Positions 18,167 through 59,997 of a stretch of DNA of 64,000 nucleotides are shown piece after piece (the first letter of the stretch is position 1; each line of letters begins with the position of its first letter). The position numbers and the translations under genes are program-made. The stretch lies in assembly GCF_900205865.1 (NCBI RefSeq), contig NZ_LT906662.1, positions 1,623,411 to 1,687,410 on the forward strand. Direction: 5' to 3'. The notes under the pieces are model-generated. The model ran no database searches and was not told where the DNA came from. It was given only the letters and a program-made list of their open reading frames with translations. The DNA comes from Thermoanaerobacterium sp. RBIITD. Lineage in GTDB: Bacteria > Bacillota > Thermoanaerobacteria > Thermoanaerobacterales > Thermoanaerobacteraceae.

Positions 18167-18861
18167 TATGAATACACCTCCCTGAAGATTTCATCAATAG
18201 ATTTATTTCTTTCTGTCCTTAATTCTTCGGCATTTCCATTTAAAATAATTTCACCATCTGAGATAAATGCGACATCGTCGAAAAGCCTTTCAATATCTCT
18301 TACAAGGTGTGTTGATATTATCATTGAGCAATCTTCACGAATATTATCTATAATTGCATCAATAATTTTTTCTCTAGCATTCGGATCAATTCCACCAAGT
18401 GGTTCATCGAAAACATATAATTTTGCATTTCTTGATAGCACTAATGCAAGGTGCAATTTCTCTTTCATACCCTTTGAAAGTGAAGTTACTTTATCATTTT
18501 CATCAAGTTTCATAAAATCCAGCAATCTTTTTGACTTTTCAAGGTCAAAATCAACATAAAAATCTTTGAAGAAATTTATTGCATCTCTAACCCTCATCCA
18601 TTTATAAAGGTAGTTTACATCAGGCAGGTACGATACAATTGATTTTGTATAAATGCCCGGCTTCTGACCATCAATTAGTATTTCACCAGATGTTGGTCTT
18701 AATATACCTGCTGCAATCTTCATAAATGTAGTTTTGCTGCTGCCGTTAGGACCCAAAAGCCCGAGTATTTTCCCTTTTTCCAGTTCAAGGTTTATTCCTT
18801 TTAATGCCTTTTTACTGTAATAATTTTTAGTAAGGTTTGTCGTTTTTAAAATTAGTTCCAT
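18166..18861 (-). CDS. ABC transporter ATP-binding protein
   Basis: GPNGSSKTT, LSKGMKEKLHLALVL and LYVFDEPLGGID motifs. Confidence 0.85.
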   Translation of the reverse strand: MELILKTTNLTKNYYSKKALKGINLELEKGKILGLLGPNGSSKTTFMKIAAGILRPTSGEILIDGQKPGIYTKSIVSYLPDVNYLYKWMRVRDAINFFKDFYVDFDLEKSKRLLDFMKLDENDKVTSLSKGMKEKLHLALVLSRNAKLYVFDEPLGGIDPNAREKIIDAIIDNIREDCSMIISTHLVRDIERLFDDVAFISDGEIILNGNAEELRTERNKSIDEIFREVYS

Positions 18862-19232
18862 CAGTTGACCTCCTTTTTAAGATATTCTTTGATAATTTCG
18901 AGTATTTCATTTGAATTGAAACCTAAGCTTCTCATACCTGTTACAAATGACTCAATTATCTCTTTTGCCATTTCTTTTTTTAATGATGCAAGTTTTTCGG
19001 TATTCTCAGTTATAAATGTTCCCATGCCTCTCTGTGTATATGTGACATTTTCCCTTTCAAGTTCCTGATAAGCTCTTTGAACAGTATTTGGATTTACCTT
19101 AAGGCTTTCGGCCATTTCCCTTACAGAAGGCAATTTATCTCCTCCTTTTAGTTTTTTTGTAACTATATCCCGCTTTATTATATCCATGATCTGGATGTAA
19201 ATGGGTGTTCTCTCGTCAAACTCAATTTTCAT
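18861..19232 (-). CDS. GntR-family transcriptional regulator, YtrA subfamily (wHTH only)
   Basis: Protein of about 123 aa (MKIEFDERTPIYIQIMDIIK...LPSVREMAESLKVNPNTVQRAYQELE). It is the first gene of the GntR/ABC ATPase/permease operon. Confidence 0.8.
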   Translation of the reverse strand: MKIEFDERTPIYIQIMDIIKRDIVTKKLKGGDKLPSVREMAESLKVNPNTVQRAYQELERENVTYTQRGMGTFITENTEKLASLKKEMAKEIIESFVTGMRSLGFNSNEILEIIKEYLKKEVN

Positions 19233-19249
19233 GTTCCACCTCCATACCA

Positions 19250-19289
19250 CTATCATAGTGTACTAATTAAATAGTACACTATGATAGTA
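19250..19289. promoter_or_regulatory. perfect 17-bp inverted repeat (ACTATCATAGTGTACTA-N6-TAGTACACTATGATAGT), putative YtrA-like operator
   Basis: The palindrome is read directly in the sequence immediately upstream of the GntR gene start. Confidence 0.5.
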
Positions 19290-21803: not shown

Positions 21804-22190
21804 CTAATCCTCCGATCTTTTTAGTTCTTTTTCTTTTTCAACTAACAATTGTTCATATACTTCAATTTTATAATCCAGGCGTTCTAAAGTTTTCTTCATA
21901 TCTTCTATTCTTTTTATTAGATGCTTACGTTGTTCAATTAAGAGTTCTTTTCTAGCCTCAATAGTTTCGTCACCTTGCTCAACCAGCGTAACATATTCAA
22001 TCAATACTTCAATTGAAAGACCTGCATTTCGCATACATTTAATAAATTCAACCCACTTACAGTCTTCTTCCGTATAGTCCCTGTTTCCGCTTTTATTGCG
22101 GTTCACACGAGGAATCAGTCCGATTCGTTCATAATAGCGGAGTGTATCTTGTGATATATCAAATTTTTCACTTACTTCTGCAATCGTCAT
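21804..22190 (-). CDS. MerR-family transcriptional regulator (AdhR/NmlR-like)
   Basis: N-terminal HTH (MTIAEVSEKFDISQDTLRYYERIGLIP), a coiled-coil C-terminus, and Cys residues at about positions 44 and 52. Confidence 0.8.
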   Translation of the reverse strand: MTIAEVSEKFDISQDTLRYYERIGLIPRVNRNKSGNRDYTEEDCKWVEFIKCMRNAGLSIEVLIEYVTLVEQGDETIEARKELLIEQRKHLIKRIEDMKKTLERLDYKIEVYEQLLVEKEKELKRSED

Positions 22191-36689: not shown

Positions 36690-36732
36690 CTGACTTATAA
36701 TATTACTTGAGTAAAAATTTAATAGACTATGT

Positions 36733-36852
36733 CCGCTGGGGGAGCTTTAAGCTGAGATGGCAAATGCCGAACCCCTCGAACCTGATTAGGCTAATACCTA
36801 CGAAGGGAATGCGGTTATGAACCGCATATTTCATATGCGGTTTTTTGTTTTT
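36733..36852 (+). ncRNA. TPP (THI-box) riboswitch with intrinsic terminator expression platform
   Basis: CTGGGGGAGC...GCTGAGA...AACCCCTCGAACCTGATTAGGCTAATACCTACGAAGGGAA matches the TPP aptamer consensus. The terminator AACCGCATATTTCATATGCGGTTTTTT follows. Confidence 0.8.
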
Positions 36853-36889: not shown

Positions 36890-37528
36890 ATGTCTTACAT
36901 TGTAAGTATTTTTTCTGATTTTACAAAATTAAAACCAGCTACGATTTCCATCATTGTAGCAATTTTATTCGCAGTTTTGCTCTTTTACATCTTAAGAAAA
37001 AGCGTGAAATTTAATACACAGATGATAGTATATGGTGGTCTTGCAATTGCTATATCGTTTGTACTGTCATACATTAGGTTCTATCATTGGCCACAAGGTG
37101 GGTCTATAACACCTGCAAGTATGTTGCCACTATTCATTTTTGCATATTATTATGGCGCAGGGCCTGGAATAGTTGTTGGCATGGCATATGGCATGCTACA
37201 ACTTATACAGGACCCATTTGTTGTTCACTGGATACAGCTGCTTCTTGATTATCCATTGGCATTTGGTGCACTCGGGCTTGCAGGTTTATTTAAGAAGAAT
37301 TTAAGCCTCGGTGTTCTTGTAGGCGGTTTTGGAAGGTTTTTCTCTCATTTCTTGTCTGGCGTATTCTTTTTCGCAAGTTATGCACCAAAGGGAATGAATC
37401 CAATAGTGTATTCGCTGCTTGTCAATGGAATACTCGTTGGTGTTGAAGTTGGAATTTGTTTTGCAGTATCACTTATACCGCAGGTCAAAAATGTTATTGA
37501 TAGAGTAAAAGCAAAAGCATTTGTATAA
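36890..37528 (+). CDS. thiT: ECF transporter S component for thiamine (ThiT-like)
   Basis: Six-TM protein of 212 aa placed directly downstream of the TPP riboswitch. A terminator follows at 37541-37580. Confidence 0.7.
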   Translation: MSYIVSIFSDFTKLKPATISIIVAILFAVLLFYILRKSVKFNTQMIVYGGLAIAISFVLSYIRFYHWPQGGSITPASMLPLFIFAYYYGAGPGIVVGMAYGMLQLIQDPFVVHWIQLLLDYPLAFGALGLAGLFKKNLSLGVLVGGFGRFFSHFLSGVFFFASYAPKGMNPIVYSLLVNGILVGVEVGICFAVSLIPQVKNVIDRVKAKAFV

Positions 37529-37767: not shown

Positions 37768-38883
37768 ATGGATAAGATAAGGATTTTGATACTTTATGAA
37801 GATATAGGAACAGGTCATAAAAGGACGGCTATGGCGCTTAAAAAAGCTTTTGAAAAGAGAGAAAATGTTGAAGCTATTGTAGCAAATCCTTTTGGGGAGA
37901 AGTTTCCTGGTCTTGCTAACCTGACAACACAGATTTATTTAAAAACCCTGAAGTTGACACCTGATTTATGGGGATACCTGTATGAGATGGAGAGAGACAA
38001 GATAGAAAGGAAGATAAATAAATTAGTCGGCATATCAATATATACATTTATTAAGGATTATGTGCTAAGCTGCAATCCTGATGCTGTAATTTGTACGCAT
38101 CCTTTTTCATGTTCTATATTGTCACATGTAAAAAGAAATCTTGATATACCTATTTATGCAATATTGACTGATTATGATGTGCATGCATATTGGATACATC
38201 ACCATATTGACGGGTACTTTGTAGGCTGCAGTGAGATGAAAACCCAAATGGAAAATATGGGGGTACCAGATAGTAAGGTATATGTTACGGGTATACCTAT
38301 AGATGAAGTGTTTTATGTTAAAAAGGATAAATCAGATATGCGACAAAAGCTTGGATTTTCTATAGATAAACCACTTGTTCTTGTAATGGGTGGTGGGCTT
38401 GGCCTTGGAAATATAAAAAAAGCTGTGAAAGTCATTCAGGAATATGATAATATACAGATAGCAGTAATATGTGGATTTAATAAAAACCTCAAAGAAAAAC
38501 TTGAGGAGATTGCAAAGGAAAATGTCGTAGTATATGGGCATGTTGATAATGTTCATGAATTTATGGAAGCTGCGGACGTATTGATAACTAAAAGTGGCGG
38601 GCTTACTGTAACAGAGGCCATATCAAAAGGATTACCTATGGTTGTATTTGACCCGATACCAGGTCAAGAGGAGCGCAATCTCGAATTTTTATTAAAGAAA
38701 AAGATAGCAATAAGGATAAAAGATATAGACAAACTTGATAAAAAAATTATAGATTTATTGAATGATAACACAAAATTAAAGGGAATGAAAGAGCGCATGG
38801 CGGAATTATCCGTATATGACTCAGCCGACAGAGTTTGTAGTATAGTGATAAATAATATTAAAAATGATGTAATGAAGGTGTAA
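37768..38883 (+). CDS. MGDG-synthase family glycosyltransferase (UgtP/YpfP-like diacylglycerol glycosyltransferase)
   Basis: MGDG_synth N-terminal region (ILILYEDIGTGHKRTA) plus a GT28 C-terminal domain. Confidence 0.75.
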   Translation: MDKIRILILYEDIGTGHKRTAMALKKAFEKRENVEAIVANPFGEKFPGLANLTTQIYLKTLKLTPDLWGYLYEMERDKIERKINKLVGISIYTFIKDYVLSCNPDAVICTHPFSCSILSHVKRNLDIPIYAILTDYDVHAYWIHHHIDGYFVGCSEMKTQMENMGVPDSKVYVTGIPIDEVFYVKKDKSDMRQKLGFSIDKPLVLVMGGGLGLGNIKKAVKVIQEYDNIQIAVICGFNKNLKEKLEEIAKENVVVYGHVDNVHEFMEAADVLITKSGGLTVTEAISKGLPMVVFDPIPGQEERNLEFLLKKKIAIRIKDIDKLDKKIIDLLNDNTKLKGMKERMAELSVYDSADRVCSIVINNIKNDVMKV

Positions 38884-40322: not shown

Positions 40323-40499
40323 ATATTAGTAACATTATGGGCATTTAAGACATAAACATTGTTTTAAATGTCAATTGCATTATGCAAAATTATGAACATT
40401 TAGAATATGATAATTATAAATAATTTAACAAAATTTTAATGCTTTTTTATTTAATCTATGATAATATAGTTAATAGCGATTGTTGAGGAGGTGCAAATA

Positions 40500-41231
40500 T
40501 TGATCGAGGTTAAAGGTTTGTCTAAAGTTTTTAAAGACATAAAAGCAGTTGATAATCTAAACTTTATTGTGAATGAGAAGGAAGTATACGGACTTCTTGG
40601 TGAAAATGGTGCAGGGAAAACAACGACATTAAGAATGCTTGCCACAATGTTAAAACCTACATCAGGCAATGCAATAATGAACGGTATTGACCTTATTAAA
40701 CAACCTGAGCTTATAAGGAAAGAGATAGGCATTCTTTTCGGTGGCGAAAGTGGACTTTATGATAGGTTGACAGCAAGGGAGAATATTACGTATTTTGCAG
40801 AGCTATATGACATGAGTAGAAATGATATAAAGATAAGAATTGATTATCTTGTATCAAAATTTGGCATGGAAGAATTTATTGATAGACCTGCAGGTAAACT
40901 TTCAAAGGGAATGAAGCAAAAAGTTGCAATTGCAAGGTCAATTGTTCATGACCCTAAAATAATGCTTTTTGATGAGCCAACTTCCGGTTTAGATGTAACA
41001 TCCTCAAGAGAAGTTCATGATTTTATAAATCTATGCAGAGATGAAGGAAAATCTATAATATTTTCAAGCCATTCAATGCCGGAAGTTGAGAAACTCTGTG
41101 ATATGATAGGAATAATACATAAGGGGAAACTTGTCGCGGAAGGAACGATAGATGAGCTTAAAAATAAGTACAATAATGACAATTTGGAGGAAATATTTAT
41201 GGAATTGGTAGGTGAGAAAAGTGAAGTTTAG
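40500..41231 (+). CDS. ABC transporter ATP-binding protein (NatA-like)
   Basis: GENGAGKTT, LSKGMKQKVAIARS and LFDEPTSGLD motifs. A TTG start is preferred (RBS GAGGAGGTG). Confidence 0.8.
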   Translation: MIEVKGLSKVFKDIKAVDNLNFIVNEKEVYGLLGENGAGKTTTLRMLATMLKPTSGNAIMNGIDLIKQPELIRKEIGILFGGESGLYDRLTARENITYFAELYDMSRNDIKIRIDYLVSKFGMEEFIDRPAGKLSKGMKQKVAIARSIVHDPKIMLFDEPTSGLDVTSSREVHDFINLCRDEGKSIIFSSHSMPEVEKLCDMIGIIHKGKLVAEGTIDELKNKYNNDNLEEIFMELVGEKSEV

Positions 41232-42402
41232 ACATATTTATATAGTTCTAAAAAAGGAACTTAAAGACATATTTAGAGACAGAAAGACGTGGATATTTAC
41301 ACTTCTATTGCCTATCCTATTTTTGCCTGTTATGATGTATTTTATCGCAGGTGGTGTACAGAGCTTTACATCCGAAAAGGCATCTGATGTAAAAATAGCT
41401 GTAAGAGATGAAGGAAATAATGAGCAATTTATTAATTTCCTTAAATCAACGGGCATAACGGTTGAGAAGATAGATGATCCCAAGGTAGCACTTGAAAAGG
41501 GAAATATAAGAGCTGTAATTAATATTCCTGCAAATTTTGAGAAGGATTTAAATGAGGGCAAAAATTCTTCTGTAACGATTCAAAATGATGAATCAAATCC
41601 AAAGTCATCGACAGCGAAAACAATGCTGGAAAATTATATCAAAGAGTATTCAAATTCTATAGTAAAACAAAGACTTATGGCGAAAGGGATTGATCCTTCA
41701 ATTTTAGAGCCTATAACATTAAAGTTTGAAAATGTTGCATCTGAGAATAAGATGGCAGGTTCATTTCTATCATTTATTGTGCCAATGCTTTTAGCATTAT
41801 GGACAGCTACTGGTGGCATGGGTGCTGCAACAGACCTTGCTGCAGGTGAAAAAGAAAGAGGGACATTAGAGCCATTGCTTACAACATCACCATCGAGGCT
41901 TTCAATTATGTCTGGTAAATATTTAGCTGTTACAATAATGTCGATATTAAGTGCTGCAGCATCTTTAATCGGTCTCTATGTAGCATTTGCAATGAATCCA
42001 AAATTTTTCGGATTAAGCGGCGGATTTAAGATAACTGGTTTTATTATGGGAATAATGATTTTAACATCTATTTTAACAGCTGCAATATTTGCGGCAATTG
42101 AGCTTGCATTAAGTACATATGCCAGGTCATTTAAAGAAGGCCAGACGTATCTTACTCCTGTTACATTTATCGCAATGATACCGGCATATATGATTATGTA
42201 TACAATACCTACAGAGATACCAGTGTATTATTTTGTAATACCGATATTTGGCACTATCTCAATATTTAAAGAGCTTCTTTATGGAATAATAAATATTACC
42301 CATATGGGGATGTTTGTAGCGACATCGTTGATATATATTATTGCTGCCATTTATCTCGCATCAACAATGTTTAAGAAAGAATGGGCTTTATTTAGGACTT
42401 AA
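41221..42402 (+). CDS. ABC-2 permease (NatB-like)
   Basis: N-terminal TM helix, a large extracellular domain and five C-terminal TM helices. It overlaps the ATPase stop. Confidence 0.7.
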   Translation: MKFRHIYIVLKKELKDIFRDRKTWIFTLLLPILFLPVMMYFIAGGVQSFTSEKASDVKIAVRDEGNNEQFINFLKSTGITVEKIDDPKVALEKGNIRAVINIPANFEKDLNEGKNSSVTIQNDESNPKSSTAKTMLENYIKEYSNSIVKQRLMAKGIDPSILEPITLKFENVASENKMAGSFLSFIVPMLLALWTATGGMGAATDLAAGEKERGTLEPLLTTSPSRLSIMSGKYLAVTIMSILSAAASLIGLYVAFAMNPKFFGLSGGFKITGFIMGIMILTSILTAAIFAAIELALSTYARSFKEGQTYLTPVTFIAMIPAYMIMYTIPTEIPVYYFVIPIFGTISIFKELLYGIINITHMGMFVATSLIYIIAAIYLASTMFKKEWALFRT

Positions 42403-45777: not shown

Positions 45778-45842
45778 TAAAATAGATATTTAAAATTGAT
45801 TTTACACAAAGATGATTCAGTAAATTAATAAGCTATTTAAAA

Positions 45843-45875
45843 GCAATTGTCTATTAAAACAATTGCTTTTTTTTG
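45843..45875 (+). terminator. rho-independent terminator after the helicase gene
   Basis: GCAATTGT...ACAATTGC followed by TTTTTTTT. Confidence 0.6.
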
Positions 45876-45892: not shown

Positions 45893-46157
45893 GATTATGT
45901 TACAAGTTTGTAATAAAAAATTAAGGAATTGTTAATAAATTTTATAAATTTTAATTTTATAATAAAAGGTAAGATATGGGAGGCAAGAATATAAAATGAA
46001 GCATAATATGCGGAAGTGATAAAAATTATTTTTATATTGCGGAATATTTTTAGAATAATTTAGCTTTTATATATATAGAAGGGGAAACAAAAGACGGAGG
46101 TGAAGAAAAAGATTATTCAATGTTCCCAAAAACATATGAGGGAGGGAGATATCTTTT
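45893..46157 (+). repeat. leader module copy A (part 1 joined to part 2; sigma cassette absent; uORF start degenerate)
   Basis: Shares TTATGTTACAAGTTTGTAATAAAAAATTAAGGAAT...GGGAGGCAAGAATATAAAATGAAGCATAATATGCGGAAGTGATAAAAAT...GGAATATTTTTAGAATAATTTAGCTTTTATATA with the other copies. Confidence 0.7.
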
Positions 46158-46838
46158 ATGAAATATCAAAAAAAATTAACAGCAGTATTACTTATAACCA
46201 TATTTTTACTGAGTGTAGTGATTACGGGCTTTACTTCAATATCGAAAGCAAGCACAAAAGAATCACTTGGTGTGAGTGATGCAACAAATTTTGATGATCC
46301 TATTACAGTAATTTCAGGCATGGTTCAGGCGATTAATGAACAGGATCCTTATGAGTATATGACCTATTTTACCAATTCTAATCGCACAGCTATGACACAG
46401 TTTCTTTCAAGTAATAAATCAGAGTCATTCTTTAAAGAGAAGCAAGCAAAGTTGATTCAAATTAAGGAGCTCCCAAAGGACATAGATATAGAAGCAGCAG
46501 GCATATCATCTGGAGAAAACTTAAATTTGGATGATACACGTATTTATTATGCTGAAATTAACTTTAAAGTGGATAAAGAAGATAAATGGCTATATAATGG
46601 TACAAACTATCGTGTTATTGTTGTTACAAAAGAAGATGGAAACTGGAAAATAGTCAGGCTATCAGTTCCATCTATAGAATACTTAAAAGATACTGGCAAT
46701 GGATTTAATTCAAAGGATGAAAATATTGCTGTTAAAATTGAAAGTACTCTTGAGAGAAAAGGACAAGTAATGAATATGAAGGGTGCAGTTATTGATAATA
46801 TTGCTGCAACAGAAGAACAGTTAAAAAATGAAAAATAG
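46158..46838 (+). CDS. lipoprotein; truncated paralog of 58729..59997
   Basis: Signal peptide/lipobox-like N-terminus. It is about 85% identical to the first 225 aa of the 58729 gene and is followed after the stop by a remnant of that gene's C-terminal domain at 46846-46925. Confidence 0.5.
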   Translation: MKYQKKLTAVLLITIFLLSVVITGFTSISKASTKESLGVSDATNFDDPITVISGMVQAINEQDPYEYMTYFTNSNRTAMTQFLSSNKSESFFKEKQAKLIQIKELPKDIDIEAAGISSGENLNLDDTRIYYAEINFKVDKEDKWLYNGTNYRVIVVTKEDGNWKIVRLSVPSIEYLKDTGNGFNSKDENIAVKIESTLERKGQVMNMKGAVIDNIAATEEQLKNEK

Positions 46839-47193
46839 TCCTAGCAAAAACAGCAGTTCAAGCTGGAGCTATAGCTGTAAAAATGTATGGCTGGTACCAT
46901 GTGAATCATCCAAAATGGAACTTTCGTATAATTAGGGGATTATTTGAATGGTATCTGTTGTAAAAATATCAGAAGTAGTAGCCTCTTACAGTTAATATTC
47001 CTAAATTATTATGACATTTCTAAAATGTAAAAAGATAACATTTAATAAAAAATTTATTATTATATAAATTTTAACAGTTATTACATAAATAAAAAAGAAG
47101 GTGATATATTAAAAACCTACTTTAAATTACATGATATTTTATTTAAATTGGAGGAAAAGGAAAATAATTAATTCAAATAAGGAGAGATCTGAA

Positions 47194-47427
47194 ATGAAAA
47201 GAATTTTAGTTACTATTATAATGTGCACTATTTTGGTTTTTTCATCAACTGTTGGCTTTGCAAATGTTGGTGATAATAAACTGAATAGTGTTTCTGCAAT
47301 TGTGAATAAAAATGATGCGAAAAAGATTGCAGCAAATCATGTCATTAGAGAAAAGCATAATGCTGAATTTAAAGACTGGATTAATGGCGAAGTAGACGAT
47401 GGAACAGAATTAGTCGATTTTAAATAA
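47194..47427 (+). CDS. small exported PepSY-like protein fragment (probably part of a disrupted gene)
   Basis: Signal peptide (MKRILVTIIMCTILVFSSTVGFA) and a PepSY-like segment. The reading continues in another frame to about 47570. Confidence 0.3.
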   Translation: MKRILVTIIMCTILVFSSTVGFANVGDNKLNSVSAIVNKNDAKKIAANHVIREKHNAEFKDWINGEVDDGTELVDFK

Positions 47428-47813
47428 TAATGTTATTGCTTATCTTTTTAATGTATATGACAAGACTGCATTATTAGGCTATATTATAGTAAGTGCTAAT
47501 AAAAATATGCCGCCTATTTTAGAATATTCCCGAGCTAGTTCTATAGTATTGGCTTATCCAAGATAAAACAAAATCTTCAAAGAAATGAAACACTTAAAAA
47601 AGCGACTTATGTATATTTTTTCCCTAATACATATATGATAAAATTTATTATAAATAGAAACAATTATGATCAAGAGGAAGAATTATTTGATATTAGAAAT
47701 TATAAAAAAATTATTTATAAAGACATAAATCAAAGTACAATAAATTCCTCAGATATTAACTCTTAGATGTTAATAATGTAAAAACATGGAACAAATTATT
47801 TGATTTTAATCCA

Positions 47814-48341
47814 ATGAATAGTGGAACAATAACTACGAAGAAAATAAGTGGTGTTCCAGATTTGACTTGGTATAAAGGCTGTGCTCCTACATCAGCAGCT
47901 AACTTGATTTATTATTGGGATGCTCATGGATATCCTAACCTTGTTATTAATGAAACTACTAATCAAGTAATAGAAAAATTGGCAATGAATATGGGAACAG
48001 ATAGTAATGGTTCTACTAATGTTTTATTTATTATGTCTGGTACTATTCAATATATAAAATCAAAAGGATATACAAATTTTGATGGTTATGATTTAAATCC
48101 TCCTAGCTATTATGATATAAGGAATGAAATAAATAATTCAAGACCCCTATTATTATCGGTAATAGGACATCCAACTTATGAAAATCATACAATGGCATGT
48201 GTTGGATATGAATACGTAACAGAACTTGGAGAAATAACAGAAGAATATGTAATAGTACATGATACATGGAGTGAAACTCCTACAGATGTGTATATTGCAT
48301 TTGATGGGACTTTCAAATATGCACATATATTTATTCCATAA
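47814..48341 (+). CDS. C39-like papain-fold peptidase domain protein (possibly the 3' part of a disrupted gene)
   Basis: Catalytic-type Cys (WYKGCAPTSAANLIYYW) and His (VIVHDTW). No signal peptide is present on this ORF. Confidence 0.45.
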   Translation: MNSGTITTKKISGVPDLTWYKGCAPTSAANLIYYWDAHGYPNLVINETTNQVIEKLAMNMGTDSNGSTNVLFIMSGTIQYIKSKGYTNFDGYDLNPPSYYDIRNEINNSRPLLLSVIGHPTYENHTMACVGYEYVTELGEITEEYVIVHDTWSETPTDVYIAFDGTFKYAHIFIP

Positions 48342-48354
48342 AAAGGTGATATTT

Positions 48355-48690
48355 ATGATATCAAAAAAATGGATAATGACCATGCTACTTATTTTGGCTC
48401 TCACAGGATGTTCAAATCTAAAAAAACAAGGAGATGTGGTAGGTGGAATATCTGATAATGAAGCTTTGAAGGTAGCTAAAGAAAAAGCGGAAATTACTAA
48501 AGTAAAATCAGAAGAGCTTAAAAATTTAGAAGTTGATCTCGACAAATTTTTTGATGATCCAAAACTTATGGAAAAATCTCCTTGCCCCGTTTACTGGATA
48601 ATAAAAGGTGTTGATAAAGAAGGGAAATCCTTAACTGTATATGTAAATTATAAAAAACCCAGCATTTATTATATTAAAAATGAAAGATAG
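48355..48690 (+). CDS. small lipoprotein
   Basis: Lipobox LILALTGCSN and an RBS (AAAGGTGA). It is about 95% identical to the product of 58106..58441. Confidence 0.55.
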   Translation: MISKKWIMTMLLILALTGCSNLKKQGDVVGGISDNEALKVAKEKAEITKVKSEELKNLEVDLDKFFDDPKLMEKSPCPVYWIIKGVDKEGKSLTVYVNYKKPSIYYIKNER

Positions 48691-48707: not shown

Positions 48708-48733
48708 TCATGGCATTTGCCATGCTTTTTTTA
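48708..48733 (+). terminator. rho-independent terminator
   Basis: CATGGCATTTGCCATG followed by TTTTTTT; the same element occurs at 58458-58483. Confidence 0.6.
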
Positions 48734-48826
48734 TGTTACAAGATTGTAATAGAAAATTAAGGAATAATTAATAAAATTTATAATTTTTAATTTTATAATA
48801 GAGGTGAGGTATGGGAGGTTAAGAGT
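48731..48826 (+). repeat. leader module copy B, part 1
   Basis: TTATGTTACAAGATTGTAATAGAAAATTAAGGAATAATTAATAAAATTTATAATTTTTAATTTTATAATAGAGGTGAGGTATGGGAGGTTAAGAG, immediately before the ATG of 48827. Confidence 0.7.
48737..48750. promoter_or_regulatory. palindrome TTACAAGATTGTAA, putative operator
   Basis: Also present at 45899-45912 (as TTACAAGTTTGTAA), 52951-52964 and 58487-58500. Confidence 0.4.
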
Positions 48827-49228
48827 ATGGGAGAGAGCGATGTAGAATTTGCATTTATTAAGTTTATTGAAAAATCTATTAATTATGAAGCAGTAAAAGC
48901 CATAAAAAAATATAATGACATTAAAAAGAAAGAACTTTTAACATTAGAGTTACCAGATTACAATGGCAATATTGAAAATGATGGGAAAATTATTGACAGT
49001 ACGGTATACGATAATGTGTTAATTGAAAATGAAATAATAGATAGATTAATGATTTCAAAATGCAAGGAACTGTTGGAAGCGGAAGAATTTAATGTTGTAA
49101 TGCTAAATATAATGCAAGATATACCACAAAAAGAGGTAGCTAAAATGTTAAATAAATCACAATCATCCATAAGCAAGATTAAGAAAAAAGCCCTTAAGAA
49201 AATAAGAAAGTTTATGGAGGGTTCTTGA
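48827..49228 (+). CDS. ECF-type sigma-70 C-terminal fragment (regions 2.3/2.4 to 4.2)
   Basis: EFAFIKFIEKSINYEAVKAIKKYNDIKKKEL aligns to region 2.3-2.4 (compare SigW FSTWLYRIATNLTIDRIRKKK). The C-terminal VVMLNIMQDIPQKEVAKMLNKSQSSISKIKKKALKKIRK is a region 4.2 HTH. Confidence 0.6.
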   Translation: MGESDVEFAFIKFIEKSINYEAVKAIKKYNDIKKKELLTLELPDYNGNIENDGKIIDSTVYDNVLIENEIIDRLMISKCKELLEAEEFNVVMLNIMQDIPQKEVAKMLNKSQSSISKIKKKALKKIRKFMEGS

Positions 49229-49232
49229 AAGT

Positions 49233-49433
49233 ATGTGTAAAAATAAAAGCCTTTTTGAAATTATTTTAAAGGCTAAAGAAGGTGATAAAGATGCTATGCA
49301 AGAGATAATATTGCGATTTCAGCCTCTTATAAAGAAAAACATGAGAAATGTTGATATGGACATAAAAGATGATATAAGTCAGGATATTGTTGAGGTAATA
49401 ATAAAAGCAATCAAAAAATTTGATATAAAATGA
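49233..49433 (+). CDS. ECF-type sigma-70 N-terminal fragment (regions 2.1-2.2 only)
   Basis: LKAKEGDKDAMQEIILRFQPLI...DDISQDIVEVIIKAIKKFDIK aligns to the SigW-type regions 2.1-2.2 (QVKKGDQDAFADIV...AEDIAQEAFIRAYVNIDSFDIN). It has its own RBS (GGAGGG, 10 nt), and its start lies 4 nt after the previous stop. Confidence 0.6.
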   Translation: MCKNKSLFEIILKAKEGDKDAMQEIILRFQPLIKKNMRNVDMDIKDDISQDIVEVIIKAIKKFDIK

Positions 49434-49589
49434 AGCATAACATTCGGAGATGATAAAAATAATTTTTATGATGTGGAATATTTTTAGAAAAAGTTAGCTT
49501 TTATATAAGTAGAAGGAGAAATACGGAAAATGGAGGTGAAAAAAGATTATGAAATATTCCCCTTAAATATGAGGGAGGATTGGATTTAA
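49434..49589 (+). repeat. leader module copy B, part 2
   Basis: CATAACATTCGGAGATGATAAAAATAATTTTTATGATGTGGAATATTTTTAGAAAAAGTTAGCTTTTATATAAGTAGAAGGAGAAATACGGAAAATGGAGGTGAAAAAAGATTATGAAATATTCCCC... Confidence 0.7.
49530..49589 (+). CDS. conserved leader uORF (MEVKKDYEIFPLNMREDWI); its stop abuts the ATG of 49590
   Basis: An RBS (AAGGAGAAA) lies upstream. Equivalent uORFs occur at 54934..54978 and 58670..58732. Confidence 0.35.
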   Translation: MEVKKDYEIFPLNMREDWI

Positions 49590-50327
49590 ATGAAAAGGTT
49601 AGTATCGCTCATTTTATGCTTATCTTTAGCTTTATCTGTGACAATCGCTTATGCAGATCTTTCTACTAATGAACAATCAATAGGTGAAGTATCAGCTGAG
49701 TCAAAAAAACTTTCTGATCAAAAAATAGTTGAAACGGCAAAGCGGTTAGAAGTGTTAAACAAAAAAGTTTCTAATGGACAAGTAAATCCTATGAGTGATC
49801 CACAAATACCACCAAGCAAAATATTAAGTACTTCCGGATATATTGCACAACCTGATAATAGTACATGTGGACCTACTTCTGCTCATAATCTGCTCTTAAG
49901 CTGGGGTAAAAATATATCTATAGATACACTGAAGAAAGATTTGGGATATAATGGTCAAACTCCTTTTGGAGATGCATGGAAAACGACGCTTAATAATTAT
50001 ACAAATTCAACTTATTATGTAGTTACTTGGAGCCCTAGTCAGACAACAATTTGGAATGCTTTCGTTGGGGACACAATTGATGGACACCCATTTATATTAG
50101 ATACACATATGTCGTCTGAAAATGGTTATCTTGAAGGTTATTCTGGATCAACATGGTGGCATTATGTAACAGGAATTGGATATAGTGGCTATAATTTAAA
50201 TTCAGACAATAGTAAATATGGAATATACTTTGATCCGTATGATGGACGTGTGGGTACTTTTGGCCAGCATTCTTTGGAACTGCCCAAATGGGTAAAATTA
50301 GTATCAGAAAGAGGAATAGTTTGGTGA
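49590..50327 (+). CDS. exported C39-like papain-fold cysteine peptidase
   Basis: Signal peptide (LILCLSLALSVTIAYA), a catalytic-type Cys (DNSTCGPTSAHNLL) and a His (WWHYVTGIGY). Confidence 0.6.
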   Translation: MKRLVSLILCLSLALSVTIAYADLSTNEQSIGEVSAESKKLSDQKIVETAKRLEVLNKKVSNGQVNPMSDPQIPPSKILSTSGYIAQPDNSTCGPTSAHNLLLSWGKNISIDTLKKDLGYNGQTPFGDAWKTTLNNYTNSTYYVVTWSPSQTTIWNAFVGDTIDGHPFILDTHMSSENGYLEGYSGSTWWHYVTGIGYSGYNLNSDNSKYGIYFDPYDGRVGTFGQHSLELPKWVKLVSERGIVW

Positions 50328-52798: not shown

Positions 52799-52944
52799 AT
52801 AAGCGAATCTAAGGTGGAATATTAAAATTCTATGTTAGACACCCATCAAAAATAGTTGGTGTCTTTTATTTTTTATTTTGCATAGGCAATCAGGATGTAA
52901 GTGTTTATCTGATAAGTTAAGGGACCAATAAAATTTTTCTGCCA

Positions 52945-53000
52945 ATTATGTTACAAGATTGTAATAAAAAATTAAGGAATAATTAATAAAATTTATGATT
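52945..53000 (+). repeat. leader module copy C, part 1, interrupted by an IS
   Basis: ATTATGTTACAAGATTGTAATAAAAAATTAAGGAATAATTAATAAAATTTATGATT, then the IS begins. Confidence 0.65.
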
Positions 53001-54782
53001 TGATTCAAGTGTCATAAGAAGCATTTTTTTAAGCTGCTAATGATAACTTTGCTTGATTTTTACCTGATTTTGTAAGAATAAATTTGATTTTGATATTTTT
53101 ATACAAAGTTGCAGCCATCTCCGCTGCCATTTTCAGTATTTTTTTTGCATTTATGGCTCCTATTTTGAATGAAAACCAGATTTTTGAGCGCACTAATCCC
53201 CTTACAGGTATCACATCTACATAATATTTGCGCCTTAGTATTGATGGAATACCCTCCACTCCATTTCTTATCTTTTGAAGTACACTGTATTCTTCTGTTG
53301 ACATCTTTTTCAAATAGCTTGCTCTTTGTATTGTTTTTGCTGTTATCAGTACATATGCCGATTTCTTTTGTAGCTTCGCTCCACATTTTTCTCTTAGTGG
53401 ACAATGTTCACATGTTTTTTTATTGAAGGATGCTCTATATAATCCTGTTTTTTCATAGTATCTTGTTTTGTATGGTTTTTCTCCTCTTGGGCATTTGATT
53501 ATTTCATGGGTCGTTTCATCTAATTCAAATTCGCTTTGTATTTCATCTGGCAATTTCCCTATAAGAGCTGTTGTTATTAGTTCGATATTGTTTTTATCTG
53601 CAAGTTCTATGTTTTCAATGCTGCTGTAAGCTCCATCTGCTATTATTGTTATTTCTTTTTCTTGTTTCCCTAGCTTTTCTATTGTTTCTTTGCAAAAGCT
53701 GCTATCGCTGTGTGTGTTTACATCATAGTCATAGCTGGTTATTATGGAGCCTTTTTCGTCTATTGTTTCTACTATGTTAGCTACATAGCCTTTATGGTCT
53801 TTTCCTGCTTTTTTGCGATATGTTGCATCTGGGTCGCTTGGGTTTTGAAGACTATCAGGGCTTATTTTTTCTTTTTCTACTGGTACTATCTTGCCTTCTT
53901 CTGTTATTTCTGTTTGTTCTTTTAGTACACGCTGTAATAGCTGATATTCTGGTAATTCAGCGTATGCTTCTCCTAATTCTTTTATTAGTGTATAGGCATC
54001 TTCAATTATTTCTTGAAGTCTTTTTGTTATTTCTTCGTTTTTTCTATGATAGATTGTTTTGTTTCTGTCGTCTTCATCTAGGTAGTGTTCCATGTTTTTG
54101 AGGTGTTGATATTCTCCTGTTTTGTATACTGCCTTGACCATATTTGCTACGCATGTGTATAGTATTTCTAATCTGGACATTTTTTTGCAACTGGATGATA
54201 CCATAATGCTGTCCATTCTTTTTACTGATGGATTTATATTAAAGTATTTTACAAATACGTTTGCCATGGCTTCCATTTCTTCATGAAGAAGGTCTCTTCC
54301 TGTTTCTAGATTGTAAAGATATAGCCTTTCACGAAAACGGCTAAAAGTCCTATCACTGAAAGGTTGACTTTTGAAGCTTGTAGTGTGAAGGGCGTATTGG
54401 AAACGGACATCACATAGGATGCTTGCTAATAGTTCGTCATCTGTGAGATTAAACATTTCTTTTAGTATTAGGGCTCCAATTATTGCGTTTACAGGACTGT
54501 TTGGACGAGAAGCGGGATTGTCACTGTACAATACGGAAAAGCGTTTCTCATTGATTGCTGGAAATATGATTTCAGCAAAGCCTTTTGCCCATGAATTTAA
54601 AACAAACGTTTTTGTTCTTTCATCCAAGTTTAAGAATCTATCATCAATTGTGATTTGTTGATATTCGTTTGGTTTGAATGCCATGGCTATGTATCGCTCC
54701 TTCTATTTCCTTTTGTTTGTATTTCTATTTTACCATATTTTTAGTTTATCATGAAGGAAAAATACTTTTGACACCTTAATCA
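53001..54782 (-). mobile_element. IS1182-family (IS5/IS1182) insertion sequence, about 1.78 kb, with imperfect terminal inverted repeats of about 25 bp and a TGATT direct-repeat flank
   Basis: Left end TGATTCAAGTGTCATAAGAAGCATTTTT and the reverse complement of the right end, TGATTAAGGTGTCAAAAGTATTTTT. TGATT is present at 52996-53000 and at 54783-54787. Confidence 0.7.
53029..54684 (-). CDS. IS1182-family transposase
   Basis: 551 aa with the N-terminal conserved region NPASRPNSPVNAIIGALILKEMFNLTDDEL. A DDE region and a C-terminal Cys-rich segment (CPRGEK...CEHCPLREKC) follow. Confidence 0.85.
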   Translation of the reverse strand: MAFKPNEYQQITIDDRFLNLDERTKTFVLNSWAKGFAEIIFPAINEKRFSVLYSDNPASRPNSPVNAIIGALILKEMFNLTDDELLASILCDVRFQYALHTTSFKSQPFSDRTFSRFRERLYLYNLETGRDLLHEEMEAMANVFVKYFNINPSVKRMDSIMVSSSCKKMSRLEILYTCVANMVKAVYKTGEYQHLKNMEHYLDEDDRNKTIYHRKNEEITKRLQEIIEDAYTLIKELGEAYAELPEYQLLQRVLKEQTEITEEGKIVPVEKEKISPDSLQNPSDPDATYRKKAGKDHKGYVANIVETIDEKGSIITSYDYDVNTHSDSSFCKETIEKLGKQEKEITIIADGAYSSIENIELADKNNIELITTALIGKLPDEIQSEFELDETTHEIIKCPRGEKPYKTRYYEKTGLYRASFNKKTCEHCPLREKCGAKLQKKSAYVLITAKTIQRASYLKKMSTEEYSVLQKIRNGVEGIPSILRRKYYVDVIPVRGLVRSKIWFSFKIGAINAKKILKMAAEMAATLYKNIKIKFILTKSGKNQAKLSLAA

Positions 54783-54995
54783 TGATTTTTAATTTTATAA
54801 TATTAGGTGAGGCAGGTATGTATAAAGTATAAAATGAAGCATAACATTCGTAAATGATAAAAATAATTTTTATGATGTGGAATATTTTTAGAAAAAATTA
54901 GCTTTTATATAAGTAGAAGGGGAAATACGGAAAATGGAGGTGAGGAAAGAGATTATGAAATATTCCCCTAAAATATGAGAGAGGGAAATAAGATT
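54783..54995 (+). repeat. leader module copy C, part 2 (resumes after the IS)
   Basis: ATGATTTTTAATTTTATAATATTAGGTGAGGCAGGTATGTATAAAGTATAAAATGAAGCATAACATTCGTAAATGATAAAAAT... The uORF MEVRKEIMKYSPKI lies at 54934..54978. Confidence 0.65.
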
Positions 54996-56096
54996 ATGAA
55001 AAAGATTTTCTCAATTTTTATTTTAATGATACTCTTTATATGTGGGGCAGTTATTAATGTAAATGCATACACAAATAACGAAAATATGAACAGTAAAGAA
55101 ATCACTAATATAATTACAGAAGCATATCAATATAGGACAAAATCAATAGTTGATCCGTCTTATATAGATAAATTGGAGTTGTTTTATGCAAAATATACAA
55201 AAATTTATAATTTCGAAAAGAATAGATATAAAAATTATATTGAGATGGCAGATAGACTGAATATAAAAATATTAAACATTAAATCCAATGTAGAAATTAG
55301 TAATATTAAGTTAAAAAACAATGATGAATGTCAAGTTGATTTAAAAGAGATTATAAGTTTTGACTGGATAAATTCAAATGATGATCCAATTAATTCTAAG
55401 ACTAACAAATCTGATATGGGTATTGATCATAAAGTTACATTAATTAAGAAAGATAATGAATGGAAAATACAAAAAGATGAATATACTGAAGGATATTTAA
55501 CAAATGTTACTTCTCCGGATTTTGATGTTTCACAATTAAAATCACTGAGTGTACCTGAAATAACGCATGATAATGTAGTTCCATATTCACCACCAGGATC
55601 AACTCCTTATAATAGAAATGCAGCTGCTAACTATGCAGAAAATTATTGTTTGAAATATAATCCTAGTTATAAAAGCTATGATTCAGTTGGTGGTGACTGT
55701 GCAAATTTTGTTTCTCAGTGCTTATATGCTGGTGGGGCCTATTATATTGGATTTGGGATTAATAGTAGTACAAACTGGTGGTATGATAATAAAAATACTT
55801 CTTTAACTACAGATGATGTTGCATCTACTACATGGACATATTGTCCTTCTCAAAGACCTTTTATACTATCAGGGTGGGGTAGTGAAACAACTTCATCAAG
55901 TTTATCAAGAGGAGACATTATATATTATGATTGGGCTGGAGATGGTATATGGGATCACGTTGCTATAGTAACAGGCTTTGATAGTTCTGGCGCTCCCCTT
56001 GTTAGCTGTCATACTACCGATTATCACAATATAAAATGGAATTATGGTGGAAGTTCTTGCAAATATAGTTGCATACACATTAATAATTATATTTAA
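54996..56096 (+). CDS. exported Amidase_6-like putative cell-wall hydrolase
   Basis: Signal peptide (IFILMILFICGAVINVNA). The C-terminal domain has Cys (GGDCANFVSQCLYAGG) and His (GIWDHVAIVTGFD) residues typical of the putative-amidase (PF12671-like) family. Confidence 0.55.
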   Translation: MKKIFSIFILMILFICGAVINVNAYTNNENMNSKEITNIITEAYQYRTKSIVDPSYIDKLELFYAKYTKIYNFEKNRYKNYIEMADRLNIKILNIKSNVEISNIKLKNNDECQVDLKEIISFDWINSNDDPINSKTNKSDMGIDHKVTLIKKDNEWKIQKDEYTEGYLTNVTSPDFDVSQLKSLSVPEITHDNVVPYSPPGSTPYNRNAAANYAENYCLKYNPSYKSYDSVGGDCANFVSQCLYAGGAYYIGFGINSSTNWWYDNKNTSLTTDDVASTTWTYCPSQRPFILSGWGSETTSSSLSRGDIIYYDWAGDGIWDHVAIVTGFDSSGAPLVSCHTTDYHNIKWNYGGSSCKYSCIHINNYI

Positions 56097-57979: not shown

Positions 57980-58105
57980 TTAATAGATTAAATGTTGAAG
58001 ACGGAGAATTCGGACAGCCAGGGTTGGATGGGGATTGGATTGTATATGATATTGGGAATACTTTCATATACACACATATATTTATTCCATAAAAAGGTGA
58101 TATTT

Positions 58106-58441
58106 ATGATATCAAAAAAATGGATAATGACAATGCTACTTATTTTGGCTCTCGCAGGATGTTCAAATCTAGAAAAACAAGGAGATGTGGTTGGTGGAAT
58201 ATCTGATAATGAAGCTTTGAAAGTGGCTAAAGAAAAAGCAAAAATTACTAAAGTAGAATCAAAAGAGCTTAAAAATTTAGAAGTTGATCTGGACAAATTT
58301 TTTGATGATCCAAAACTTATGGGAAAATCTCCTTGCCCCGTTTATTGGATAATAAAAGGTGTTGATAAAGAAGGGAAATCCTTAACTGTATATGTGAATT
58401 ATAAAAAATCCAGCATTTATTATGTTAAAAATGAAAGATAG
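58106..58441 (+). CDS. small lipoprotein, paralog of 48355..48690
   Basis: Lipobox LILALAGCSN. The whole 58020-58570 block duplicates 48290-48830. Confidence 0.55.
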   Translation: MISKKWIMTMLLILALAGCSNLEKQGDVVGGISDNEALKVAKEKAKITKVESKELKNLEVDLDKFFDDPKLMGKSPCPVYWIIKGVDKEGKSLTVYVNYKKSSIYYVKNER

Positions 58442-58457
58442 TCTAATTGTTGAATTT

Positions 58458-58483
58458 GTCATGGCATTTGCCATGCTTTTTTT
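58458..58483 (+). terminator. rho-independent terminator (duplicate of 48708-48733)
   Basis: CATGGCATTTGCCATG followed by TTTTTTT. Confidence 0.6.
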
Positions 58484-58728
58484 ATGTTACAAGATTGTAA
58501 TAGAAAATTAAGGAATAATTAATAAAATTTATAATTTTTAATTTTATAATAGAGGTGAGGTATGGGAGGTTAAGAGCATAATATGCAAAATGATAAAAAT
58601 AATTTTTATGATGTGGAATATTTTTAGAATAATTTAGCTTTTATATAAGTAGAAGGGGCAATACAGAAGATGGAGGTGAAAAAAGATTATGAAATATTCC
58701 CCAAAAATATTAAGGAGGGAGATCTTTT
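58484..58728 (+). repeat. leader module copy D (part 1 joined to part 2, no sigma cassette)
   Basis: Part 1 is identical to copy B up to GGGAGGTTAAGAG and is then joined directly to CATAATATGCAAAATGATAAAAAT... The uORF MEVKKDYEIFPKNIKEGDLL lies at 58670..58732 and overlaps the ATG of 58729. Confidence 0.7.
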
Positions 58729-59997
58729 ATGAAACATCTAATAAGATTAACAGCAGTACTGCTTATAACAACATTTTTAATAGGTATAGTGATTACAGGA
58801 TTTACTTCAATACCGAAAGCAAGCGCAAAAGAATCGGTTAGTCTGAGCAATATAACAAATTTTGATGACCCTATTGCAGTAATTAAAGGGATGATTCAAG
58901 CAATTAACGATCAGGATCCTTATGAGTATATGAACTATTTTACCGATTCTAATCGCACAGCCATGACACAATTTCTTTCAACTAATAAGTCAGAATCATT
59001 CTTTAAAGAGAAAGAGGCTAAGTTGATTCAAATTAAAGAGCTTCCAAAGGAAGTAGGTGTAGTAGCTGCAGGTATTTCATCTGGAGAAAACTTAAATTTG
59101 GATGATACACGTGTTTTTTATGCCGAAATTAACTTTAAAGTGGATAGAGAAGATAAATGGCTATATAATGGTACAAACCATCGTGTTATTGTTGTCACAA
59201 AAGAAGATGGAAGCTGGAAAATAGTAAGGCTATCAGTCCCATCTATAGAATACTTAAAAGATACTGGCAATGGATTTAATTCAGATGACGAAAATATTGC
59301 TGCTAAAATCGAAAGTACTCTTGATAAAAAAGGACAAATAATGAATATGAAAGGTGCGGTTATTGATAATATTGCTGCAAGTGAAAAACAGCTAAAAGAT
59401 GAGAAATTAAATCCTAGAGCTATTGAACCTGAAATAGGCATAGATAGCACAGCAGTTGATGAACATACGAGGCCTTCTAATATCAGGGTTTACATGACAA
59501 ACTCAGTAAATATAAATCATTATGGTTCCGGAACTCACCTTGTTGATTTTGGAGATTATGTGTATAATGTACTGCCAAATGAATGGGGCGACTGGTACAA
59601 TACGGCTAAAACAGCAGTTCAAGCAGGAGCTATAGCTGTAAAAATGTATGGTTGGTACCATGTGTATCATCCAAAATGGAATTTTAGCCCTTACTATGCT
59701 GACGTACAAGATAATATAAATGACCAAGTATATAAATACAATTCAGCGACAACTAATTTTAATAGTGCAGTTAATGATGTTGGAGGGATTGGTGTCGATA
59801 TACTCAGTGGATCGGCTTATGTTCTATTTGAAGTGCATTACGTAGCAGGAACTGAAGGACCAGGCGGGCAATATAGTGGTACGATGTGGCAATATGGAAC
59901 GTTATATTGGGCAAAACAAGGTAAAGGCTATACTTACATGTGCCATTATTATTGGGACAGATCGTCAACTCAGCCAATACATTTCTTTTACTATTAG
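58729..59997 (+). CDS. lipoprotein with C-terminal SpoIID/LytB-like domain (tentative)
   Basis: Lipobox/signal ITGFTSIPKASA. The C-terminal VLPNEWGDWYNTAKTAVQAGAIAVKMYGWY resembles the SpoIID ...ALKAQAVAARTYA region. Confidence 0.45.
   Translation: MKHLIRLTAVLLITTFLIGIVITGFTSIPKASAKESVSLSNITNFDDPIAVIKGMIQAINDQDPYEYMNYFTDSNRTAMTQFLSTNKSESFFKEKEAKLIQIKELPKEVGVVAAGISSGENLNLDDTRVFYAEINFKVDREDKWLYNGTNHRVIVVTKEDGSWKIVRLSVPSIEYLKDTGNGFNSDDENIAAKIESTLDKKGQIMNMKGAVIDNIAASEKQLKDEKLNPRAIEPEIGIDSTAVDEHTRPSNIRVYMTNSVNINHYGSGTHLVDFGDYVYNVLPNEWGDWYNTAKTAVQAGAIAVKMYGWYHVYHPKWNFSPYYADVQDNINDQVYKYNSATTNFNSAVNDVGGIGVDILSGSAYVLFEVHYVAGTEGPGGQYSGTMWQYGTLYWAKQGKGYTYMCHYYWDRSSTQPIHFFYY

Follow-up and report, generated by a model that had tools for sequence, protein, structure and literature searches.

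The window analysed here, a 64,000-nucleotide (nt) stretch of Thermoanaerobacterium sp. RBIITD (contig NZ_LT906662.1, positions 1,623,411 to 1,687,410), carries an island of gene cassettes, many of whose products resemble secreted cell-wall hydrolases, together with a pair of genes for a sigma-like factor split into two polypeptides. Four leaders precede cassettes in the window, and each holds one copy of a short site that a preliminary description had taken for a 6-2-6 palindrome (TTACAA-NN-TTGTAA) serving a dimeric helix-turn-helix (HTH) regulator. When the flanking bases that never vary are included, the site is a-TGTTAC-AAGAT-TGTAAT-a. It consists of a directly repeated hexamer with a period of 11 bp, 17 bp in total, and it matches TGTWAH-N5-TGTWAH, the consensus of the response regulator WalR (YycF/VicR), at 12 of 12 positions; it is this direct repeat that is kept in diverged homologous promoters. 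Alignment of the copies and reading of the sequence divide each leader into a 5′ part, P5, and a 3′ part, D1. P5 starts a few bases before the dyad (TATG/TTACAA...), continues as an AT-rich stretch to a TATAAT and ends in a strong ribosome-binding site, GGGAGG. The boxes and the features immediately around them are as follows.

45898–45914, + strand: box copy A, TGTTAC-AAGTT-TGTAAT, in a sigma-less leader
48734–48750, + strand: box copy B, TGTTAC-AAGAT-TGTAAT, which includes the dyad at 48736–48749; the start codon of the sigma-4-like gene is 93 nt downstream
52949–52965, + strand: box copy C, TGTTAC-AAGAT-TGTAAT, separated from its own −10 by an insertion sequence (IS)
58485–58501, + strand: box copy D, TGTTAC-AAGAT-TGTAAT, in a sigma-less leader
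48794–48799, + strand: TATAAT, the putative −10 of P5 as judged from the sequence, 43 nt after the box
45958–45963, 54796–54801 and 58545–58550: equivalents of this TATAAT in the other copies
48709–48733, + strand: terminator-like hairpin CATGGCATTTGCCATG (48709–48724) and T run of the preceding cassette, abutting box copy B
58460–58484: the same terminator-like hairpin (58460–58475), abutting box copy D
45839–45870: terminator-like hairpin about 30 nt upstream of copy A
about 52836–52875: terminator-like hairpin about 75 nt upstream of copy C

The exact dyad, TTACAANNTTGTAA, occurs four times in the window, always on the + strand, against 0.02 matches expected from shuffles, with GT as its centre at 45900–45913 and GA at 48736–48749, 52951–52964 and 58487–58500. 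The earlier count of four therefore stands, as does the placement of every copy downstream of a terminator-like hairpin with a T run and upstream of an AT-rich stretch ending in TATAAT, but the first two copies had each been placed one base off (they start at 45900 and 48736). Because the four sites are copies of one repeated module of about 270 nt, and as paralogues count as a single event, the contrast of four with 0.02 measures duplication and not independent events. Tolerating up to two mismatches gave 19 matches against 12.5 expected from shuffles, with nothing promoter-like among the additional ones. Perfect dyads with arms of 6 nt and spacers of 0–6 nt number 263 in this DNA of 33% G+C (4.1 per kb), and about 1.1 are expected per 270-nt leader; once duplication is discounted there is no excess over chance, so that a single dyad in the ancestral leader is unremarkable and its fourfold recurrence reflects duplication only. 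Extended outward, the dyad pairs at 9 of 11 positions per arm.

The same island, with a cassette content that differs by strain, is flanked by an SNF2 helicase gene on one side and by a LiaF-like gene or argC on the other, and also occurs in strains PSU-2 and CMT5567-10, in T. saccharolyticum NTOU1 and in a Joint Genome Institute metagenome. A DNA scan of genome contigs, anchored beside the dyad and not on it so as to avoid ascertainment bias, brought in T. thermosulfurigenes, T. butyriciformans and another two loci of Thermoanaerobacterium type, L065 (from a metagenome-assembled genome) and L111; among the matches listed, about 6 of 120 stretches were relevant, and the remainder served as a background set. 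Aligning the 4 window copies with 16 from relatives (again among the matches listed) gave 20 copies of the module, closely related and partly paralogous and therefore a weak test, all of which keep both the 12/12 direct repeat and the exact dyad. The 12 hexamer or arm positions are all invariant, whereas 12 of the 38 remaining unanchored columns of the module show variation (p = 0.022, one-sided Fisher test); variability across the module peaks at the two bases in the centre, which are GA in 14 copies, GT in 5 and AT in 1. Invariant arms around a variable centre would, on this weak test, be the signature of a bipartite protein-binding site; the idea of an operator-like site thus survives, in that the 5′ edge of the promoter module very likely holds a binding site for a regulator. 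All four leaders in the window have the site, as had been claimed for every leader copy, but three leaders in related strains (L001 14194, L002 12757 and L003 12525) have 5′-truncated modules without it, and because some relatives' leaders have a truncated P5 the box is not obligatory for every cassette.

Dyad and direct repeat cannot be separated from Thermoanaerobacterium sequences alone, because they share most positions and the variable bases fall in the spacer either way. Homologous promoters in other genera do separate them. A profile search identified sigma homologues that are 45–54% identical in Thermoanaerobacter sp. YS13, T. uzonensis and Caldanaerobacter subterraneus MB4, and the metagenome contig L126 holds a decaying sigma gene that is 50% identical, with TGTAAC-TATTT-TGTAAC upstream. 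Every sigma pair in these genera, as well as several sigma-less derivatives, has a perfect 12/12 box upstream on the same strand (TGTAAC-CGTTT-TGTAAC, TGTAAC-CAATT-TGTAAC, TGTTAA-CAATT-TGTAAC or TGTAAC-CATTT-TGTAAC), 40–43 nt before a TATAAT and in the register seen in the window, with the same TATAAT spacing in Thermoanaerobacter and Caldanaerobacter. Differences between genera are confined to the degenerate W and H positions and to the N5 spacer: identity to the window is 83% in the hexamers, 20–40% in N5, 27–60% in the 15 nt upstream and 47–67% in the 43 nt downstream. The dyad, by comparison, retains only 3–4 of 6 pairs in seven homologous promoters of the other genera, so symmetry is not maintained there, and its exact pattern has no match in loci L126–L132. 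Because the box is perfect in diverged homologues in which the dyad is lost, the conserved element is the direct repeat, and we consider it probable that this repeat, not the dyad, is the functional unit. The palindromic look would then be a genus-specific by-product of a TGTTAC followed by AA, with a spacer that ends in T. We caution that a palindrome read from one genome can be the accidental shadow of a direct repeat; only the diverged homologues told the two apart here.

The box is also enriched where these promoters occur. In the 64-kb window the pattern TGTWAH-N5-TGTWAH (TGTWAHNNNNNTGTWAH) matches only the four leader copies, with 1.2 matches expected; three 16-kb loci of the other genera hold 2–3 boxes each against 0.20–0.28 expected from shuffles, and the background is 11 boxes in 806 kb of unrelated DNA, or one per 73 kb. 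Across the window and about 150 kb of related loci, all exact consensus matches but three lie in P5 modules. The first of these three is in Caldanaerobacter (L130 15605), where TGTAAC-CAATT-TGTAAT stands outside any P5 module and 21 nt before GGTATAAT, a stretch with a TATAAT, upstream of a gene with a Cu_amine_oxidN1 domain; this spacing differs from the 43 nt of the module by about two helical turns. The other two are at L127 5034 and, on the − strand, at L111 3069. The L127 box (5034–5050, TGTTAA-GTTTA-TGTTAA) sits directly downstream of AAGGTATAAT and before an ABC-transporter operon that precedes the sigma pair. It has a counterpart in Caldanaerobacter (L130 4913–4929) that matches at 11 of 12 positions, and the homologous ABC transporter of the window (40491–42402) is without a box; the L127 and L130 pair could be a repressing site or a chance occurrence.

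In published work the WalR consensus is TGTWAH-N5-TGTWAH, WalRK has been reported in all Firmicutes and peptidoglycan hydrolases always belong to the regulon (PMC9210968), while TGTTAT-N5-TGTAAT is among the VicR sites mapped by footprinting, and sites that serve activation are located upstream of the −35 (PMC4168254). The box resembles the WalR sites of Bacillota (B. subtilis, S. aureus, S. mutans and those predicted in C. difficile) in its full consensus match, its direct hexamers with an 11-bp period and variable spacer, its position upstream of the −35 region and the secreted cell-wall-hydrolase-like genes downstream, and the A that follows both hexamers in the window agrees with the extended S. 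mutans consensus TGTWAHA-N4-TGTWAHA (PMC4168254). It differs in that the host is a thermophilic anaerobe of the Clostridia class, that the box is known here from sequence alone, that it would act on the hydrolase genes mainly indirectly through a sigma factor and that it has multiplied together with a promoter module. Its placement upstream of the sigma pair and of genes that domain annotation likens to cell-wall hydrolases is that of a WalR site, and the cargo fits WalR because WalR regulons always include peptidoglycan hydrolases. Since the direct repeat still fits the consensus at every one of its 12 positions where the dyad is lost, the pattern points to a head-to-tail dimer of the OmpR family, of WalR type, and not to a symmetric HTH repressor. 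We judge it somewhat better than an even chance that the box is a site for an OmpR-family winged-helix response regulator of WalR type; with less certainty, the most likely candidate is WalR itself, presumably encoded elsewhere in the genome.

Several points weigh against this assignment. The presence of WalR in the host genomes rests on a literature statement covering all Firmicutes (PMC9210968). A literature search for WalR in Thermoanaerobacter returned nothing specific, and no response-regulator gene was found in the 64-kb window (open reading frames (ORFs) outside 25–40 kb) or in the related loci examined. The WalR match was recognised after the site had been compared with about 15 known operator motifs, so the window match on its own is modestly significant, with about 1.2 consensus matches expected per 64 kb and about 0.005 per leader. 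The homologous promoters all come from one order, several being paralogous within a genome, and amount to about four independent lineages. The dyad is perfect in 20 of 20 Thermoanaerobacterium copies, so that a second, genus-specific symmetric binder is possible, and activation predicted from the position of the box would fall if the real −10 were elsewhere than at TATAAT. Finally, other OmpR-family regulators use similar TGT-containing direct repeats, and the B. subtilis PhoP box, TTAACA-N5-TTAACA, becomes TGTTAA-N5-TGTTAA when reversed.

These last two points bear on the strongest rival, that the box is bound by another OmpR/PhoB-family regulator, either PhoP-like or a lineage-specific envelope-stress regulator, which would leave the mechanism as it is and change the input signal. 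The 11-bp-phased direct-repeat layout is common to OmpR-family sites, and the T. uzonensis hexamer TGTTAA is the reverse of the B. subtilis PhoP half-site. Most hexamers, however, end in C or T (TGTAAC, TGTTAC and TGTAAT), which fits the H of the WalR consensus, whereas the PhoP half-site needs an A, and the two hexamers here compare with four in a typical PhoP site. PhoB and WalR have closely similar consensus sequences (PMC4168254), but hydrolase-like downstream genes are a hallmark of the WalR regulon (PMC9210968), and we consider this alternative unlikely, if the most serious one. The motifs of LexA, CcpA (cre), Rex, Fur, CodY, Spo0A, ArgR, LacI/GntR-type regulators and PrfA were also compared, and none fits the site; Rex matches its left half only and CodY only 9 of 15 positions.

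It is also possible, and in our view improbable, that the site has no dedicated regulator and is either a passenger in a module homogenised by duplication or gene conversion, or a piece of the core promoter, with TTGTAA as the −35 and ATTAAT 17 nt downstream. The module is indeed very uniform from TATG to TATAAT across the 20 copies, TTGTAA agrees with TTGACA at 4 of 6 positions and an ATTAAT/TTAATA 17–18 nt downstream of TTGTAA recurs across the genera. Between genera, however, the two hexamers are the best conserved part and their spacer the least conserved, a −35 in the second hexamer would leave the first without a role, ATTAAT is missing the A that matters at position 2 of a −10, and the box at L130 15605 stands independently before an unrelated gene with different downstream sequence. 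A sigma-70 promoter scan did not list the TTGTAA/ATTAAT pair; its hits were no commoner than in shuffled sequence, the scan being uninformative in AT-rich DNA. The 43-nt AT-rich stretch between box and TATAAT (48751–48793) is 63–67% identical to most Thermoanaerobacter and Caldanaerobacter copies and 47–49% identical to those of YS13_a and L126, whose spacing differs. It holds a nearly invariant TTAATAAA(W)TTT, possibly a further element, for example a −35 of non-canonical type, an UP element or the site of another factor.

The operator for a dimeric HTH repressor or activator envisaged in the preliminary description fares worse, and we consider it very unlikely. The dyad is perfect in all 20 Thermoanaerobacterium copies and varies only in its 2-nt centre; it lies at the upstream edge of the promoter and so resembles the PrfA box, TTAACA-NN-TGTTAA, another inverted repeat of 6-2-6 form with an unconstrained centre and the same kind of position. 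Dyad operators of this kind nevertheless differ from the present site, the symmetry of which is lost in the Thermoanaerobacter, Caldanaerobacter and L126 promoters where the overlapping direct repeat is perfect, and near which no cognate regulator gene was seen. The dyad leaves the invariant TG just 5′ of it unexplained, and perfect 6-nt dyads are common in this DNA. No HTH regulator besides the sigma pair is encoded in the island of any genome examined, which agrees with the earlier statement for the window island (large ORFs of at least 50 amino acids (aa) scanned); the other HTH regulators seen in the window (ORFs outside 25–40 kb), GntR-type (18861–19256) and MerR-type (21804–22190), both stand in unrelated gene surroundings. 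A role in recombination or as an insertion hot spot, by which the site would mark cassette boundaries and drive shuffling, is barely credible: it lies within 5 nt of the 5′ homology boundary between leader copies, cassette order varies between strains and IS elements have inserted in leaders, but no integrase or site-specific recombinase occurs in any island examined, the IS insertions are elsewhere in the module, deletion junctions fall at the sigma genes, and the box is present both as a single copy in Caldanaerobacter and before an unrelated gene.

If the box is a WalR-type site, its principal target would be the promoter of the split-sigma operon, the components of which, with the D1 element that follows, are listed here.

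48827–49228, + strand: sigma-4-like protein of 133 aa, with Pfam Sigma70_r4 only, a match to positions 51–164 of an extracytoplasmic-function (ECF) sigma model and, in the Protein Data Bank, a match to FliA region 4
49233–49433, + strand: sigma-2-like (RsoA-like) protein of 66 aa, with Pfam HTH_16 and a weak match to the RsoA model
49475–49503, + strand: D1 promoter-like element, GGAATA-N17-CTTTTA, between the sigma-2-like gene and the first cassette gene, which it immediately precedes
46041–46069, 54879–54907 and 58615–58643: the other copies of D1 in the window

The 66-aa protein gave weak NCBIfam matches to the N-terminal region 2 of SigH, SigY and SigI, and a match in the Protein Data Bank to the N terminus of SigI6. 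It scored 24.7 bits against the RsoA model (NF041489), the cut-off of which is 100, and is not an RsoA orthologue by that measure. The HTH_16 family presumably also includes the Orf7/Orf8-type pair of Tn916. Judged by sequence and gene order, the adjacent pair looks like a two-subunit sigma factor of the kind described for SigO-RsoA (PMC10028694), the same in kind and not orthologous. The likeness consists of adjacent genes, in the same order, for a sigma-4-bearing protein and a small sigma-2-like protein; the targets here are hydrolase cassettes, not oxdC, and no RsiO-like regulator was seen.

D1 (GGAATA-N17-CTTTTATATA) stands directly after the sigma-2-like gene in three genera and before every cassette. 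Outside the window it takes the form GGAATA-N17-CTTTTA(TATA) and is found at L127 8627, L128 4448 and 8627, L130 8510 and L126 807, with GAAATA in L126. This distribution suggests that D1 is the likely cognate promoter of the split sigma. The site had earlier been seen as controlling the whole cassette family; instead, it belongs primarily to the promoter of the split-sigma operon, and the cassettes carry a different conserved promoter, D1. A GGAATA after the box was considered as an autoregulatory −35 in common with D1, but the idea is weak, since L126 does not keep the motif and Thermoanaerobacter has no more of it than RGAAT.

Taken together, these features suggest a two-tier cascade. Counted from the start that TATAAT implies, the box would cover about −72 to −56, upstream of a poor −35 region. 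A phosphorylated response regulator would occupy it head-to-tail, on a single face of the helix, and so activate P5; activation is preferred to repression because sites upstream of the −35 are the activating ones for VicR (PMC4168254). P5 would drive the two-gene sigma operon (the 133-aa sigma-4-like and 66-aa RsoA-like sigma-2 proteins), and the split sigma would in turn read D1 before each cassette of secreted peptidoglycan-hydrolase-like genes. The other three boxes would belong to orphan P5 modules, left when sigma genes were deleted from duplicated units, from which transcription would read into D1 and the cassette. A parallel exists in B. subtilis, where WalR sites lie upstream of sigI(-rsgI) and sigma-I drives lytE and mreBH (PMC7478892): there too a response-regulator box precedes a sigma operon with a peptidoglycan-hydrolase regulon in a two-tier cascade. 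The sigma here, however, is split into two polypeptides unrelated to SigI, no anti-sigma gene was seen and the targets form a variable cassette array.

We tentatively propose, as a composite less probable than the assignment of the box to a WalR-type regulator, that in three genera such a regulator gates a SigO/RsoA-like sigma whose dedicated regulon is a fast-evolving array of hydrolase-like cassettes, and that the unit of box, P5 and D1 duplicates with the cassettes, after which redundant sigma genes are deleted and orphan regulator-controlled promoters are left stacked on sigma-dependent ones. A WalR-type box is itself of a known kind; its setting, with a split sigma and a duplicating and decaying cassette array, is moderately novel. 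Were the proposal correct, the site would be the likely input of the whole island, with cell-wall status setting the level of the split sigma through a two-component system, and newly acquired wall enzymes would be wired in modular fashion into wall homeostasis. It would also extend WalR-type control, and the logic of WalR acting on hydrolases through a sigma factor, to thermophilic Clostridia-class anaerobes used in biomass conversion, and provide a second natural two-subunit sigma with a clearly conserved target promoter.

The leaders record how the orphan modules may have arisen. In copy B the two sigma-like genes separate the 5′ from the 3′ half, and in copy C an IS separates the halves. 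In leaders A and C the junction ...AAGAGTAT/AAAATGAAGCATAA... brings the region of the start codon up against the final codons and stop of the 66-aa gene, and leader D has the junction ...AAGAGCAT/AATATGC...; the junctions fall at short repeats (TAT; AGCAT). Because they join the start of the sigma-4-like gene to the end of the sigma-2-like gene or to a point just beyond it, the sigma-less leaders are deletion derivatives of a sigma-bearing unit. Those leaders (45975–46000, 54815–54840 and 58560–58580) retain the ribosome-binding site and start region of the sigma-4-like gene, followed by GAGTAT/AAAATGAAG (last codons and stop of the sigma-2-like gene) or GAGCAT/AATATGC (just beyond it). In one T. 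uzonensis copy (L128 4160–4230) the sigma-4-like gene is cut in frame to 16 codons and the HTH_16 gene is intact. In L126 (293–790) the sigma-4-like start codon reads ATA and the sigma-2-like gene is cut to 28 codons, with box, P5 and D1 intact. These sequences suggest that redundant sigma genes have been deleted recurrently and independently.

The IS in leader C and the first genes of the four cassettes are as follows.

52992–54781, − strand: IS element of 1.79 kb in leader copy C, between box and −10
46158–46838: DUF4829 fragment, first gene of the cassette behind leader A
49590–50327: Peptidase_C39_2 protein, first cassette gene behind leader B
54975–56096, + strand: Amidase_6/CHAP protein, first cassette gene behind leader C
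58729–59997: protein with DUF4829 and a SpoIID-like domain, first cassette gene behind leader D

The IS encodes a transposase of 551 aa with DDE_Tnp_1_6 and DUF772 domains (53029–54684, − strand), is flanked by a 7-bp target duplication, ATGATTT (52985–52991 and 54782–54788), and has imperfect terminal inverted repeats (GATTCAAGTGTCA... and ...TGACACCTTAATC); the cassette behind copy C was left with D1 only after the insertion. The end of an IS110-type element, CATTCCTGTAATGAATAAAAAATAAGG, follows directly after ...ATAGAG at about L081 3615 and about L130 8560, in the P5 module of T. thermosulfurigenes (L081) and in the D1 element of Caldanaerobacter (L130), and this element may target a short ATAGAG-type motif common to both promoters. 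The cassettes also encode BNR-repeat proteins and several proteins of no family. The cassette behind leader A (46158–48690) looks degraded, with fragments of 226, 98, 175 and 143 aa compared with an intact paralogue of 422 aa carrying DUF4829 and the SpoIID-like domain, and its segment 48309–48608 is 95% identical to 58060–58359 (within 57992–58441).

At the gathering threshold, a search of the whole window against Rfam returned only a thiamine pyrophosphate (TPP) riboswitch (RF00059, 76 bits; 36728–36826, + strand), upstream of ORFs at 36890–37528 and 37768–38883, and an E-value search of leader D returned only a chance match on the terminator hairpin; given no leader match in either search, the leaders are not a known RNA family. 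Around D1, an AT-only 8-1-8 palindrome, ATAAAAAT-W-ATTTTTAT, lies 5 nt upstream of GGAATA (58593–58609, 49453–49469 and 46019–46035) and is partly kept in Thermoanaerobacter (AAAAATAAATTTT). The 5′ untranslated region after D1 (58671–58730, 49531–49592, 54939–54975 and 46098–46160; about L127 8700) shows GGGG...CCCC pairing and holds a strong ribosome-binding site, GGAGGTGA, with a short upstream ORF (MKYSP... in the window, MF(V/I)KRSP... in Thermoanaerobacter). This ORF extends to, or overlaps, the first cassette gene's ribosome-binding site or start, and could encode a leader peptide or provide translational coupling.

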